Notes under the pieces: generated by a model
Seen by the model: only the letters and a program-made list of their open reading frames with translations
Databases searched by the model: none
Told to the model about the DNA's origin: nothing
Translations under genes and position numbers: made by a program
Assembly (NCBI GenBank): GCA_963713615.1
Contig: CAVQMM010000001.1
Coordinates: 736,001 to 800,000, forward strand
Direction: 5' to 3'
DNA from: an uncultured Chlamydiae bacterium
GTDB lineage: Bacteria; Chlamydiota; Chlamydiia; Chlamydiales; JAJFMA01
Length of the DNA stretch: 64,000 bases
Part shown: positions 6,929-26,371 of the stretch, one piece after another
How the letters are laid out: every line of letters begins with the position of its first letter
How positions within the stretch are numbered: the stretch's first letter is position 1

Positions 6929-7234
6929 GATTCGTGCCGTTTTTAGGAGTAACACGGATGCACACGGATCTAGGAGGATTTAGGAGGATAGGATGGAAAA
7001 AACTAGTTCATCATTCTAAAACGATAAAAAATGGTTTTAGGATGGAATGGATCAACAGGAATTCAATTTCCCATCCTTATTTTAGGAGTAACACGGATGC
7101 ACATGGATTTATGGAAGTTGAACTAAAATCATTTTTTACCGTTTTAACATGTGGATTTAGTTCTTTTCATTCTATCCTCCTAAATCCTCCTAGATCCGTG
7201 TGCATCCGTGTTGCTCCTAAAAATGGAACGAATC
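6929..7234. repeat. Long imperfect palindrome (~110-bp arms) with phased GGAT iterons, inside the pel operon
   Basis: Left arm GATTCGTGCCGTTTTTAGGAGTAACACGGATGCACACGGATCTAGGAGGATTTAGGAGGATAG is the near reverse complement of the right arm ending ...TCCTAAAAATGGAACGAATC. A third core copy is at ~7080-7110. Confidence 0.95.
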
Positions 7235-7329
7235 ATTACCCACTTGCGATTTTTGAATCTCTTGGCTTTGGCGCGGTCCAAATTCCAAATTTATGATCAA
7301 TTGTGGTATAGCAGCAAAAGGAGGCTTTA

Positions 7330-8721
7330 GTGGCCGGTATAGGGTTTATCTTAAAACGCCTCGCTCAAAAAGAGACGCTTTCAGCGACGCTGCAAAGCTA
7401 CTTACATGCTGCTGTGATCAGTACTGGGCCTTGGCTCATGACCGTCCTTGCCCTGGGAACCGTATTTATCGCTACACGCAACGTGACGTTTCTTGAAGAA
7501 GTCTCCGACTTTCGCAATATTGTTATGTACAATTTTTGCTTTGCCGCTGTTTTAAGTGCTCCCGTGGTCATGGTAGCGACACGCTTTCTATCGGATAGCA
7601 TTTACAATAGAGACCTGCGACCGGTCCCCGGTATGCTCATAGGGGCACTGGCACTACTATTCTGCGTTGCAGGTCCATTGGCCGGTCTATTTTATTTCGG
7701 TGTTACTAAGCTAAAGGCTCCCGTCGCCCTGTTGGGTGTCATGCACTTCCTCTTGGTTGCCACAACTTCTGTGGTATGCATTTTCCTCTCTGCACTGCGA
7801 AACTATCGGGGTATCACGCTGGCTTTTCTCTTTGGACTCGCATTATCCGTCGCAGGTACACTAGCAATGGCTCAGAATTTCCGCGTTGCGGGTATGCTGG
7901 TGGGCTTTAGCGTTGGTTTTGTCTTTATTGTCGGTGCGATTATCGGTCAGATCTTTGCCGAATATCCCAAAGATTGCCGTAATGTAGCTAGCATTTTGCC
8001 CTATTTTCCCAAGTATTGGGATGTTGGCCTTGCCGCCTTACTTTATGCCATGGGAACCTGGGTTGATAAGTGGGTGATGTGGTTCTCTCCCCAGGCCGTT
8101 GTCACCTCTGCTGGTCTCATCATGTACCCCTATTATGACAGCTCCATGTTCCTAGCCTACCTGACGATGGTTCCAGCTTTGGCAATGTTTATCCTGAACC
8201 AGGAAACCTATTTTTTTGAGATCTACCTTGAATTCTACCGCAGCATCCTAGGGCATCGCAGTTATAGGACGATTCAAAAAAATCATATCAGCCTATTGTT
8301 GGGTTTAGCAGATATTGGGAGGGGAGTCCTTCTTCTTCAGACATTCGTGTGCGTTGCAGCGTTAGTGCTAGCACCTAAGATATTTGAGGCTTTGGGGTTG
8401 AGCTTTGCAGGTCTCGGCATGTTTCGTTACGGTGTTCTCGGGGTAACTTTTCACGTCTTTCACTTGTTCATATGTGTCTTTTTGTCCTATTTTGATCATA
8501 GAGCAGGGTCCTTAATCGTGGCCGCGGTGTTTCTGGCAACCAATGGTCTATTCACACAGGCAACTATTTGGCTCGGTTTTCCCTTTTATGGGTATGGATA
8601 CTTTCTAGCATCGCTTGTCACCTTTGTTGTTGCAGCTATCATCCTTGAGCGCTTTGTATACAATTTGCCATATCAGACGTTCATTCTGAATAATTCGGCC
8701 TTAAGGCAAAAGGGAGTTTGA
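7330..8721 (+). CDS. pelG: PelG exopolysaccharide transporter
   Basis: MAGIGFILKRL N-terminus; GPWL; WVDKWVMW; YPYYD; ET.F motif; about 12 TM helices; GTG start after GGAGG. Confidence 0.95.
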   Translation: MAGIGFILKRLAQKETLSATLQSYLHAAVISTGPWLMTVLALGTVFIATRNVTFLEEVSDFRNIVMYNFCFAAVLSAPVVMVATRFLSDSIYNRDLRPVPGMLIGALALLFCVAGPLAGLFYFGVTKLKAPVALLGVMHFLLVATTSVVCIFLSALRNYRGITLAFLFGLALSVAGTLAMAQNFRVAGMLVGFSVGFVFIVGAIIGQIFAEYPKDCRNVASILPYFPKYWDVGLAALLYAMGTWVDKWVMWFSPQAVVTSAGLIMYPYYDSSMFLAYLTMVPALAMFILNQETYFFEIYLEFYRSILGHRSYRTIQKNHISLLLGLADIGRGVLLLQTFVCVAALVLAPKIFEALGLSFAGLGMFRYGVLGVTFHVFHLFICVFLSYFDHRAGSLIVAAVFLATNGLFTQATIWLGFPFYGYGYFLASLVTFVVAAIILERFVYNLPYQTFILNNSALRQKGV

Positions 8722-23657: not shown

Positions 23658-26011
23658 GAAGAGTCCTTTCTGTTGTCCACAATATATTCATTCAGTCGAC
23701 CTGCCAGCTCATCGCGTTCATCACATGTCATCAGAAAGTCGAACCGGCCTACAATGCTTTGGAGTTTTACGAGGTCGATCAAAAAGTCATACTCGGCATT
23801 AGCAGATACCGAAGCGGCTACGAGGGCTTGATTTTGGGCATCGAGAAGATCAACGACAGTAGCATTACCCTCCGTATAGGCATCAGCGACCTGATTACGG
23901 CTCTTGTCAGCAGCTTCGGCCGACTCTCTCGACAACCTAATGGCTGCGTAGGAGGCGGTGGCACTATTGAGTCCGGTGCGGATGCCTTGTTCCAGCTGCT
24001 GCTCGACGGATGATAGCTCACATTGCAGGCGGAGCAGTTCATCGATAGCTTGCTCTTTCTCAGCGATGCGTGCCCCACCGGTGAAAAGCGGATAGGTGAC
24101 GGTGACGCCCACACTGAAGTTCGTCCGATTGAAGGGAAAGAGGGGAACGATCGGTGCTTGGCCTGCTCCGCCAGCTGCTGCGCGTTCTCGAACATCGGCG
24201 GCGAAGTTGATATCTGGCGTGTAGAATGATCGCTTGGCAACATTTACAGCTTCAGCTTGCGCTTCGATAAGGGTGCGAAGCTGGCGCATCTGTGGTGATA
24301 GACTTAGCCCTTCCATCAGTTCAAATTCGCTAAGCAGGTCTAGTCCTGTAGTATCGGCGAGGTTATGATCAAACCAAATCCCATTAAGGATCCAACAAGG
24401 ATCATCGGAGGAAATGTCTTCGACACTGATCGACTCACACTGGTCTCTATTGAGAAGACGGTTGAGAGCCACCATAGCTGAGCGCATTTGGTATTGGGCA
24501 CGGATGGCATTAGTTCTATTAGTGGCGACTTCGCTTTCCCAGCGAAAGACCTCTGTGGACCTGGCTTCCCCGATAGCTACGCGATGGCGAGCCGTTTTTA
24601 GGTTGGATCGCGTCAGGCGCAGGTTAGATAGCTGAATATCGTGCAGCGTTTTAGCGCGCAGCATATTAAAATAGGCTGTGGCAACATTGAAGACGGTCTC
24701 ATTGTGTGTGGAGACGAAGCCTTCCCAACGCGCTATCTGCTTACGTCTTTCTATGGATAGGTTACCCCATAGTTTGTTGGAATAGAGTACCTGGCTAGCT
24801 GATGCTGTGCTAAACAGTGCGGCCTGCGGTTCAGTGCCTAAAGCAATAATCGCACGATCCCTATCAATAATCCGAGCTAATGCTCCAACCTGAACCTGCG
24901 GAAGTAGTGGTGCCGCAGCCTTGCGCACTTGCTGTAGTCCAACGGCCAATGCTTGACGCGCCGCGGCTAAATCACTATTGGCGGATAAGGCTTCATCGAC
25001 AGCATCCAACAGAGTCAAATAGGGCCCTGGTAGTGATCTATTTTCGTTGACTACATCCGCGTCGATAAGCAGATCCCAGGAAGGCACCACACCAACTTCA
25101 CTAGCTGTTTCCATGTTCAGGATTAGCTGTTCTTCGGTTGTCATCACGACAGGCATGGTCTCTAAAGGTTGTCCACCTAGATAGCGCTGGATATTCAAAG
25201 CAATTCGACGGGCAAGACGCTTTGTAGCGAGGTCTGGTGTCAACGTAGCCATGATGCCACTTTCAACCAAAGAACGACTAGAAAAGGCAAAGGTTGGTAT
25301 GCCGCGGCAATTGAGTCCATCAATGAGTCGTTCAACATTCTGCAAAGTTATCTGTGGCAAGGGAAGAAGGTAGACTGCCTCAGTGTTTGAGGGCAGGACT
25401 TTGAGTGTTTGGTCTACCGAGTCTTCGATGGCAACGACTTGCACATCTAGCTTTAAGCGTTTGCCAAGGGCTACTAGTCCTGGCTCCAGCGTATCAACAG
25501 CTCGCAGAACCGTTGCATTGGACAGCATAGCGAGATGTCGAAAGGGTTTAAGTTGCTGGAAGACACTTATGTCCCTCTCCAGGTGAGATGTAAATGCGAT
25601 GTAGTTGAGATTTCTGACGCCTGAGGTGCCAGCGGCATAGGGGAGTCGTTGCACCTGTGAGTCTAGGATATAAGGTGCAAATGAAGGTTTTGGCAGCTTC
25701 TTGCGCAGGCTAATATCATTGGAAACGATGGGTCCAATGCCCACTACAAGACTGACACTGTTGGAAGCAAAAGCTTCATCGACAACGCGGTGCGCACCTT
25801 GGTCGGTCCAATCACCCAAGAAGTCCCTTATCTGAACTTCATTTTCAGGGGTCAACAGATCTTTTATTTCATGCTCAAAGCTGTTGCGAATATCCTGCAG
25901 AGATGTGGATGGGCCATCAATGACAAATCCTATGCGTATCAATTCGCCACGGCAAAGCAATGGTAGCAGAAGCAGGCACAACAGAAGTAGGGAGGCATAG
26001 GCCCGATGCAT
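23636..26011 (-). CDS. TolC-family outer-membrane channel fused to an N-terminal ABC substrate-binding-like domain
   Basis: Signal peptide from ATG 26011 (the ORF-track start lies in the palindrome); N-half resembles a binding protein (LILNMETA); C-half has OEP repeats (TLLDAVDEAL..N.DL; VVDLLDAQ). Confidence 0.88.
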   Translation of the reverse strand: MHRAYASLLLLCLLLLPLLCRGELIRIGFVIDGPSTSLQDIRNSFEHEIKDLLTPENEVQIRDFLGDWTDQGAHRVVDEAFASNSVSLVVGIGPIVSNDISLRKKLPKPSFAPYILDSQVQRLPYAAGTSGVRNLNYIAFTSHLERDISVFQQLKPFRHLAMLSNATVLRAVDTLEPGLVALGKRLKLDVQVVAIEDSVDQTLKVLPSNTEAVYLLPLPQITLQNVERLIDGLNCRGIPTFAFSSRSLVESGIMATLTPDLATKRLARRIALNIQRYLGGQPLETMPVVMTTEEQLILNMETASEVGVVPSWDLLIDADVVNENRSLPGPYLTLLDAVDEALSANSDLAAARQALAVGLQQVRKAAAPLLPQVQVGALARIIDRDRAIIALGTEPQAALFSTASASQVLYSNKLWGNLSIERRKQIARWEGFVSTHNETVFNVATAYFNMLRAKTLHDIQLSNLRLTRSNLKTARHRVAIGEARSTEVFRWESEVATNRTNAIRAQYQMRSAMVALNRLLNRDQCESISVEDISSDDPCWILNGIWFDHNLADTTGLDLLSEFELMEGLSLSPQMRQLRTLIEAQAEAVNVAKRSFYTPDINFAADVRERAAAGGAGQAPIVPLFPFNRTNFSVGVTVTYPLFTGGARIAEKEQAIDELLRLQCELSSVEQQLEQGIRTGLNSATASYAAIRLSRESAEAADKSRNQVADAYTEGNATVVDLLDAQNQALVAASVSANAEYDFLIDLVKLQSIVGRFDFLMTCDERDELAGRLNEYIVDNRKDSSCMCEQL

Positions 26012-26097
26012 TGCGATGATACCCGTCGTAGTCAACGGAACATGTATAGCAAAATTATGAATTTGATCGCTAACCCTACGACGGCTTGAATTAGGAT

Positions 26098-26371
26098 TTA
26101 GGAGTAACACGGATGCACACGGATCTAGGAGGATTTAGGAGGATCGGATGGTTGGGTGTGGCCTATCCAGCGCGAAGGTTTAGGAGTAACACGGATGTAG
26201 GATGATGGGATGGAAAAACTAGTTCACCATTCCAAAACCGTAAAAATGGTTTTAGGATGAATGAATCAAAATAAATTTTAATTTCCTAAATCTTCGCGCT
26301 GGATAGGCCACACCCAACCATCCGATCCTCCTAAATCCTCCTAGATCCGTGTGCATCCGTGTTATTCCTAA
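26098..26371. repeat. Long palindrome (~88-bp near-perfect arms), same GGAT-iteron family as 6929-7234
   Basis: 26098-26185 is the reverse complement of 26284-26371 with about 2 mismatches; the loop contains a copy of the 6990-7070 segment. Confidence 0.95.

Follow-up and report, generated by a model that had tools for sequence, protein, structure and literature searches.

Two enzyme classes, RAYT and Ssn, have been tied to populations of dispersed bacterial repeats. In REPIN-RAYT systems, as described in two reports (PMC3116915, PMC3337134), extragenic inverted doublets form long hairpins and are present in many copies, each family has one single-copy enzyme gene, and several families coexist; variable spacers that keep the hairpin, as well as clustering in tandem, are known for REPINs from the same work. 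Ssn nucleases, according to PMC11893778, are small single-domain proteins whose genes are flanked by their own NTS/SRM repeats, dispersed in many copies, with each enzyme preferring its own. In addition, template switching is reported to homogenize the arms of inverted repeats in bacteria (PMC5941160).

Herein we describe a family of hairpin repeats, built on an arm unit named R, in the genome of an uncultured Chlamydiae bacterium, starting from two palindromes within a 64,000-nucleotide stretch of its DNA (the window). Like REPINs, R-based elements are inverted pairs that form long hairpins and are extragenic, multicopy and lineage-restricted. However, REPINs have an HUH Y1 transposase as partner and R has a candidate one in a PD-(D/E)XK nuclease; REP is a short palindrome, whereas R consists of direct 10-nt words in a row and has no fold of its own; and R arms enclose whole genes and carry their own tandem spacer+R units. 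As in Ssn-SRM, a small gene of the nuclease type lies between copies of a repeat that is also dispersed over the genome, although Ssn is a GIY-YIG enzyme (cd10448) with demonstrated ssDNA cleavage (PMC11893778), while the protein found here has a PD-(D/E)XK fold and predicted activity. Inverted ends, short non-coding forms and high copy number are reminiscent of the MITEs of classical IS families, but a cognate DDE transposase is lacking, no duplication of the target was found, and the variants are not nested deletions. Similarly, the 10-nt phasing of direct words recalls plasmid iterons, yet all R loci are chromosomal, the neighbors in the window are not rep genes, and there is no plasmid match. 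Finally, tandem spacers are often near-identical copies rather than unique as in CRISPR arrays, and neither the window nor the cassette locus matched a CRISPR entry in Rfam.

A modular family of hairpin elements

The two palindromes are both real and are members of a multi-locus hairpin family. They lie where the original prediction had placed them, and R is indeed common to both (Table 1). The 47-bp R is the building block of 74 loci, all on the chromosome contig, with 114 full-length copies at ≤4 mismatches and two arms at 53 loci; among 301 phylum genomes the family is present in one. R loci fall outside crude ORF calls in 72 of 74 cases, convergent gene pairs are over-represented at them (25/74 vs 249/1203, p 0.012), and most elements start tens of bases or less from a stop codon. 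The pelF and pelG genes, between which element 1 resides, adjoin directly in G001 and G002, and junctions corresponding to R elements in congeners are either empty or occupied by other palindromes. A search for a target site or duplication gave no empty paralogous site for the 53 loci, with congeners too diverged for comparison. Searches with the elements gave no Rfam match, the sole match being RNase P next to the cassette described below, and element 2 had no BLAST match in plasmid and phage collections. Promoters and terminators predicted in and near element 2 did not exceed those in shuffles, and neither excision nor insertion was seen in public runs X1-X6, which cover small shares of the stretch with the organism at ~2-5x, as contigs.

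Table 1. Component parts of the two R-based elements (window positions)
Feature	Position	Strand	Remarks
Element 1, left Z-type outer segment	6926..6942	+	7 bp past stop codon of upstream glycosyltransferase (pelF-like) gene
Element 1, left arm R (47 bp)	6943..6989	+	GGAT words, 10-nt period; Shine-Dalgarno-like AGGAGG at end
Element 1, core X	6990..7079	+	A-tract-rich standard family interior; weak imperfect hairpin (z -1.9)
Element 1, partial inner arm R' (30 nt, 93%)	7082..7111	+	
Element 1, second X (X'), inverted and diverged	7112..7173	-	Not a recent copy of left X
Element 1, right arm R	7174..7220	-	1 mismatch vs left R
Element 1, right Z-type outer segment	7221..7237	-	
Element 2, left arm R	26098..26144	+	
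Element 2, left Y spacer	26145..26177	+	Slot is Z-like in sister locus C1:3211194; likely copied from right arm
Element 2, partial inner arm R' (18 nt)	26180..26197	+	Shortened R end comes next
Element 2, core X	26198..26291	+	Single copy, the usual state
Element 2, right Y spacer	26292..26324	-	Identical to left copy
Element 2, right arm R	26325..26371	-	Position 7 differs from left R

Both elements fold far better than shuffled sequences (z -25.0 and -18.8; 0/200 and 0/100 shuffles equal), while R alone without the hairpin does not (-1.2 kcal/mol, z -0.71, with 44/200 shuffles as good). The predicted order R-Y-R'-X-rcY-rcR of element 2 agrees with our coordinates, and its mirror is perfect over 73 nt (26105-26177 and 26292-26364). 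X in the loop of this element was also correctly described as unpaired: a mirror partner is missing, and the centroid structure leaves most of X unpaired. In element 1, by contrast, the two X copies do not form a recent mirror: left X and X' differ by 15 edits over 55 nt, and 12 relatives at other loci are closer to left X.

The basic unit of the family is R-X-rcR, about 190 bp, and arms grow by tandem [spacer+R] units whose spacers form two classes, Z and Y, corresponding to the left and right spacers of the nuclease cassette. These modules occur in 30 distinct orders across the 53 two-armed loci, the commonest form (12/53) containing a single directional X. X is the standard core of the family (37 matches in 36 loci and 0 outside R loci), but it is missing from the gene cassette and has no match in any related cassette. 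An origin of X as a leftover of a GxxExxY gene was rejected, given a best nhmmer E of 0.23 over the fetched cassette loci. With respect to replication, X shows no strand bias (15 vs 18, p 0.73; GC skew only was used to place the origin and terminus). Y is unique inside the window, as proposed, but not in the genome, where a third copy with 1 mismatch occurs at C1:3211634, in a right arm only. The right-arm spacer of the nuclease cassette is a related variant, and Y differs at >6/33 positions from all other loci but one; Y is a family module and not locus-specific foreign DNA, contrary to the suggestion that locus-specific sequence had been copied into the arms. Nor are the ends constant, because some carry an outward Z-type segment, at both ends in 8 of 53 loci; Z also sits before the arms of another repeat family.

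The loops of some loci contain other repeats or an IS66 fragment. Two whole genes, one YunG-like and one for an ABC transporter, also lie between facing R arms, and a congener lacks both of them at the corresponding junction. They may have been captured by R arms; as the arms surround such unrelated genes and not only the nuclease gene described below, enclosure by itself is no proof that an enclosed gene spreads the arms. No transposase with R ends was present among six wider facing R pairs.

A GxxExxY nuclease cassette with matching arms

A search for R-flanked GxxExxY genes, as had been suggested, was productive: R arrays flank one intact gene of this PD-(D/E)XK type in the genome. In the cassette (C1:1921545-1922705), three R+Z units are followed by a TIGR04256 gene of 131 aa and then by inverted R+Y units. 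Its product is a full member of the GxxExxY family (TIGR04256, 135.1 bits against a cut-off of 35; PF13366 (PDDEXK_3), 133.2 against 22), a very large family (7979 matches among 7997 scored candidates) that PMC3424549 lists as of unknown function. The D...ExK catalytic residues are intact, with D78, E88 and K90 invariant among 109 aligned homologs, and the predicted structure (pLDDT 89.7) matches PD-(D/E)XK folds, with a best Z of 8.3 and none clearly above the rest. A Holliday-junction or cruciform resolvase activity is not favored over other nuclease activities, Hjc scoring Z 5-6 and not standing out from other folds of this type. A PDB sequence search with the protein gave nothing at E <0.02, and a literature search, with subscription papers mostly outside it, found nothing tying GxxExxY/PF13366 to repeats. 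The parallel search for an R-flanked RAYT gene came up empty: 0/6 Y1_Tnp matches lie in R loci, the nearest being 3.8 kb away, and their 400-bp flanks have other repeats or none.

The words that build the arms appear to follow the clade of the protein. Words of 10-nt period occur on both sides and point inward at 49/64 loci of the GxGF type (from metagenomes, and the cassette itself), with the wrong orientation at 1/64, and are found at 0/17 GxGL-type phylum homologs; these are two clades and so essentially one contrast. Seven phylum homologs that have the GxGF motif but are more distant lack these words. Within the studied genome, 151 of 161 ten-nt-period word pairs fall in R loci. Pairs with a nine-nt period, as present on either side of a second GxxExxY gene, number 116, none of them in an R locus. 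That second gene has its own separate repeat family. A scan of genome_contigs with a single protein gave only two loci. The burst of words is unique to this genome among 161 phylum genomes (148 vs ≤2), and it alone has a close match to the cassette gene (192 bits vs ≤117, with 160 phylum genomes scored). In another genome, G017, 60 GxxExxY matches were found, but the cassette there sits inside an IS-like element, which we take to be of the IS5 family; a self-mobile GxxExxY cassette was therefore rejected for G017, where the cassette multiplied as a passenger of that element.

Copying between arms

A comparison of arm-versus-arm with locus-versus-locus identity, a check called for at the outset, clearly separated the two: mirrored 20-mers private to a locus are present in 12/53 own arm pairs as compared to 41/2756 cross-locus pairs (p 8e-11). 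This private k-mer test supersedes a first mirror test, limited to the 28 nt after R, which found few loci. Mirroring extends to whole spacers and indels, and at C1:3652755 the spacer variants follow a largely mirrored order in the two arms. Mirrored host flanks are rare (top-ranked at 3/53 loci). At a sister locus of element 2, C1:3211194, the right-arm Y and the inner sequence are the same, whereas the left spacer is Z-like. Given the excess of private mirrors, copying between the arms of a locus likely happens, as had been proposed, at a minority of loci that includes element 2; it is not the rule, with no private mirrored 20-mer in 41/53. A RAYT-linked family of the same genome is also enriched by an equal test (12/142 vs 48/20022), so mirroring is no proof of a fold-back birth peculiar to the R family; it is probably a general trait of long palindromes in this host and not a signature of the GxxExxY enzyme. 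The quasi-palindrome correction described in PMC5941160 likewise turns imperfect inverted repeats into perfect ones by one-arm copying, although the cases given there are short repeats and mismatches, while here a 33-nt module was seemingly replaced within a 73-nt tract.

Origin and spread of the R family

We favor a reading, with a probability of roughly 0.6, in which the two elements belong to a REPIN-like family of about 70 intergenic hairpins and lack a gene of their own, the arm-matched GxxExxY nuclease likely cuts the arms and so likely spreads them, and the mirror of element 2 arose later, likely by arm-to-arm copying. The arms match those of the cassette, and we tentatively attribute their spread to the GxxExxY enzyme, whose action we infer. 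The predicted nuclease would recognize the arms and cut at or near one, leaving repair to host enzymes. Repair by slippage would yield tandem spacer+R units. Mirrored spacers, seen at about one locus in four, would stem from template switching or from conversion of one facing arm by the other, anchored on R, and repair with occasional capture of other DNA would account for the repeats, IS66 fragment and whole genes in loops. In element 2, the left Y would have been copied from the right arm, replacing a Z-like spacer. We know of no strand-transfer chemistry for a PD-(D/E)XK nuclease. Action in trans is conceivable for the six genes of the genome that resemble Y1 transposases. The same six genes, together with unrelated genes lying within R arms, the Z segment common to another repeat family, and the IS-borne cassettes of G017, would fit a scenario in which the GxxExxY gene is a passenger or binds arms only, and host repair or a RAYT-like transposase in trans spreads the elements. 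We consider this unlikely, given that word type follows protein clade over many unrelated metagenome loci, that gene and word burst coincide in 1 genome of about 160, and that the repeat-flanked RAYT-like genes here have their own, different repeats.

Other explanations address the mirrors themselves. If each element were born as a perfect palindrome by fold-back (snap-back) synthesis of one arm and decayed afterwards, one would expect the several perfectly mirrored loci, the spacer order at C1:3652755, and a relative's cassette with 229-nt arms at 93% identity that include non-repeat sequence; nevertheless, such a birth is improbable in view of the many loci without a private mirrored 20-mer despite a nearly invariant R, the commonest form with its one directional X, the unlike left (Z) and right (Y) spacers of the cassette, and the seldom mirrored host flanks. 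Selection for RNA or DNA pairing through compensatory point mutations is a poor candidate as well: although convergent genes are enriched, elements start near stop codons, and compensatory changes are known for REPINs from PMC3116915, Y is the same in both arms while differing from nearly all other loci, mirrored whole spacers and indels amount to block copying, and unpaired interiors are tolerated at most loci. The inverted ends, non-coding interiors and dominant short form might also be taken to mean that every form arose by plain deletion from a single longer IS or MITE containing X and Y, a view largely refuted by the number of module orders, tandem gains, Y or Z on either arm, an X absent from the cassette, the lack of an R-ended transposase in the wider facing pairs, and the lack of a match in plasmid and phage collections or Rfam. 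Least credible are assembly or polishing artefacts. The assembly is near-complete in 3 contigs, and polishing can homogenize repeats. However, one low-depth short-read contig from run X5, a run possibly related to the assembly, equals 26153-26303 without difference and joins the larger part of left Y to R', X and 12 nt of rcY, which makes a polishing artefact unlikely; a second short-read match equals 25995-26184, and other mismatches are retained between arms of the same elements.

A broader proposal, which we regard as speculative and rather doubtful, is that GxxExxY genes and word-built arms constitute an undescribed repeat-nuclease system, in which predicted cutting of its own hairpins and their repair would create landing pads, arm copying, tandem growth and the capture of foreign whole genes beside the ready ribosome-binding site of an arm; arm-gene-arm cassettes might then move without a transposase or integrase. 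Mirrored interiors alone are less surprising, because they have precedent in REPINs and template switching. The R family is a clean case in that one gene, of a clade otherwise not found in the sampled phylum, coincides with a burst of its matching repeat, and the second GxxExxY gene with separate repeats provides a built-in negative control for the candidate enzyme-substrate pair. Should the protein cut R, the enzyme classes linked to repeat populations in bacteria would number three, with GxxExxY joining RAYT and Ssn, and the protein might serve as a small tool for sequence-specific cleavage. Moreover, the two enclosed passenger genes suggest that such repeats may help to fix horizontally acquired genes.

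Copies and modules of the R family

BLAST searches with R, the 47-bp arm unit, and with both window elements recovered a family of 74 loci. Every one lies on C1, the 3.9-Mb chromosome contig of this genome; an R match is present in 71 and facing arms in 53. R, a run of GGAT words with a 10-nt period, is nearly invariant across 114 full copies and does not fold alone; it ends in AGGAGG, with an ATG within 2-4 nt downstream in 86 of 120 copies. The core interior X has 37 occurrences, spread over 36 of the loci, and none outside the family; tandem spacer+R units, with spacers of classes Z and Y, are frequent in the arms and point inward wherever the scan detected them. 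In total 30 module orders were found among the 53 loci, the most frequent form in a strict scan being R-X-rcR, where rcR is inverted R (12/53), whose interior measures 95 bp at the median. By crude ORF calls, 72 of the 74 loci are intergenic, close behind stop codons, and placement between convergent genes is enriched (25/74 vs 249/1203). A 20-nt word of R is present in 157 copies in this genome and was absent from 300 other genomes of the phylum, three congeners included. At C1:208083, 1367206, 1675621 and 2362240 a second arm family opens with the same Z segment as the R elements, and at each of these loci a few variable bases are mirrored at both ends.

Both window elements are present as the original prediction described them and fold far better than shuffled sequences; element 2 contains a perfect 73-nt mirror spanning all of Y and most of R. 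Public short-read contigs, of low depth and from runs possibly not independent of the assembly, are identical over window 26153-26303 and 25995-26184, which speaks against an assembly artefact at element 2. In the relatives G001 and G002, pelF and pelG abut at the site occupied here by element 1, while G003 and G004 gave no usable comparison there; the element 2 junction showed no synteny in the relatives examined. Window 27-8721 is a pel-like exopolysaccharide gene cluster in which Pfam identifies PelG and a DUF3492 glycosyltransferase; PelG was also found in four of five relatives. Across element 1 (window 6916-7296) one frame stays open for 126 codons, beginning at a TTG that overlaps the stop codon upstream; this is probably chance.

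Coordinates and settings of the window elements and of genes between facing R arms (C1, chromosome contig; L, extracted locus)
Feature	Coordinates	Setting
Element 1	window 6929-7234 (6926-7237 with complete Z-type segments)	glycosyltransferase gene 7 bp upstream; pelG after
Element 2	window 26098-26371	between efflux gene and signal peptidase gene
Nuclease cassette	C1:1921545-1922705	R+Z units, then gene, then inverted R+Y units
YunG-like gene, 122 aa	L183:1053-1518 = C1:674752-675217	between facing R arms
ABC exporter (transporter) gene, 585 aa	L191:2943-4895 = C1:1146442-1148394	behind leuS; one R arm on each side, facing, with Y-like spacers

Mirrored interiors

Mirroring was measured by counting 20-mers confined to two arms and absent elsewhere in the genome. 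Such private 20-mers link the arms of one and the same locus in 12 of 53 cases, against 41 of 2756 for pairings between loci; what is mirrored consists of entire spacers as well as junctions and indels. At R positions 1-48, outer arms had non-consensus bases in common 14 times against 5.0 expected (p 0.0003) and inner arms 9 times against 4.7 expected (p 0.018), and in the inner-arm pairs listed the junction base is the site of most shared changes. Host flanks are seldom mirrored (3/53 top-ranked vs 0.5 expected). The proposal of copying between arms is supported for element 2 and a minority of loci, but not for element 1 or for the 41 of 53 loci that have no private mirrored 20-mer. A sister locus at C1:3211194 has the right-arm Y of element 2 (one mismatch) and the adjacent interior, yet its left spacer is Z-like, which points to right-to-left copying in element 2. 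In element 2, then, the right arm likely served as template for rewriting the left slot, with R and a short shared TTTAGGA as the limits of the copied stretch. Element 1 is different: 15 edits separate its two X copies over 55 nt, and both have closer relatives at other loci, so it arose either by fusion of two halves or by an old duplication.

Mirroring is not special to the R family. The chromosome carries 492 palindromic loci that together span ~159 kb, or about 4% of C1; all but 79 were assigned to one of 13 families. Own-arm enrichment was 17-fold for R, 44-fold for the family linked to the second GxxExxY gene and 35-fold for one bracketing a RAYT (REP-associated HUH transposase) gene, with none significant in three families of 25-41 loci; these loci were found through mirrored 16-mers, so the values are possibly inflated, an ascertainment that does not apply to the private 20-mer test of R. 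For REPINs (inverted REP doublets), diverse spacers that still form hairpins (PMC3337134) and compensatory changes (PMC3116915) are reported, and arm homogenisation is, as standard, explained by template switching (PMC5941160). Further palindrome families of the window, some of them nested in one another, lie at 10936-11021, 14199-14361, 19126-19413, 29259-29391, 36082-36306, 43741-43884, 49513-49611 and 52869-53733. A unit of ~2.5 kb with a 514-aa ORF, likely an IS targeting RAYT-linked repeats, is inserted in the loop of RAYT-linked palindromes at 12 C1 sites (e.g. 58321, 433283). The window also holds four tandem paralogous ORFs (44030-49452), one with an OmpP1/FadL-like Pfam match, and repeat-rich ORFs at 34996-35875, 41588-41875 and 51108-51476.

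The nuclease cassette and its relatives

The cassette gene encodes a 131-aa protein of the GxxExxY family (PD-(D/E)XK-type nuclease; TIGR04256/PF13366), and its start codon follows the AGGAGG of the arm. The catalytic-type residues are invariant across 109 homologs, and the confident structure model matched PD-(D/E)XK folds in general, with no single family outstanding. The flank survey took in the own cassette and 80 metagenome loci that encode close homologs, 81 in all, of which 67 had sufficient flank. Inward words of 10-nt period lie on both sides of 49 of 64 loci of the GxGF motif type and at none of 17 GxGL-type phylum homologs, a contrast not replicated over independent pairs; in 11 of the 17, one or both sides carry 9-nt-period words. 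Within this genome the word types are separate: 151 of the 161 pairs with a ten-nt period lie in R loci, against none of the 116 with a nine-nt period. The ten-nt burst was seen in this genome only (among 161), as was a close match to the cassette gene (among 160 scored). The 10-nt-period words are missing from seven phylum homologs that have the GxGF motif but are more distant, so the link between protein and words is to a clade.

None of the six Y1 transposase-like genes of the genome lies within an R locus; C1 also carries two GxxExxY and two four-helix-bundle genes, and several of all these have their own arms. In its workings the R family resembles REPIN-RAYT and also Ssn-SRM, a GIY-YIG nuclease with its own dispersed repeats (PMC11893778), but the enzyme fold differs from both, so it belongs to neither, and R, unlike the REPIN-RAYT unit, is not a REP-type palindrome. 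Literature searches, largely of open-access papers, found no paper linking GxxExxY proteins to repeats. The cassette junction, between folE and rnpB, is occupied by palindrome families that differ among the relatives G003 (L015), G002 (L016) and G004 (L017), which makes it a recurrent insertion site. In another genome, G017 (L040-L059), a GxxExxY cassette together with its arms lies inside the end of an IS-like element and has multiplied along with it, some copies being internally deleted with both arms retained; in G022 (L033:1146-2290) a GxxExxY cassette has 229-nt arms at 93%, mirroring tandem units and a long non-repeat tract.

Genes between facing arms

Six adjacent facing R pairs lie 200-4000 bp apart, and three enclose a whole gene, one being the nuclease; the remaining three pairs contain an IS66 fragment or another palindrome family. 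Window 14372-15304, with inverted ends around two ORFs, one bearing an IS66 transposase fragment, is a degraded IS66-like element, a piece of which sits in the loop of the R locus C1:415770. The YunG-like gene starts 12 nt past one arm and has its stop codon inside the other. Of 300 phylum genomes, only this one yielded the gene, and G001 has ~90 bp and no gene at that junction; the YunG-like protein has 41 database matches including itself, the best relative at 77% and some homologs named from Woesearchaeota. The ABC transporter is present in 22 of 200 phylum genomes, its nine homolog loci examined have no flanking inverted repeats, and the G001 leuS-chaperone gap (~880 bp) is too short for it. 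Such an arrangement is possibly the outcome of two independent single-arm insertions flanking an already acquired gene. Other repeat families on the chromosome contain occasional enclosed genes and many 514-aa ORF copies, so palindrome loops are general insertion hot spots.

The R family combines common arms, a modular build, a lineage-restricted burst, block mirroring at a minority of loci and genes between facing arms. Our preferred reading, to which we give a probability of about 0.6 as a whole, is that the nuclease would recognise the phased words and cut, and that host repair would then add tandem units, copy one arm onto the other, capture DNA and produce new insertions.
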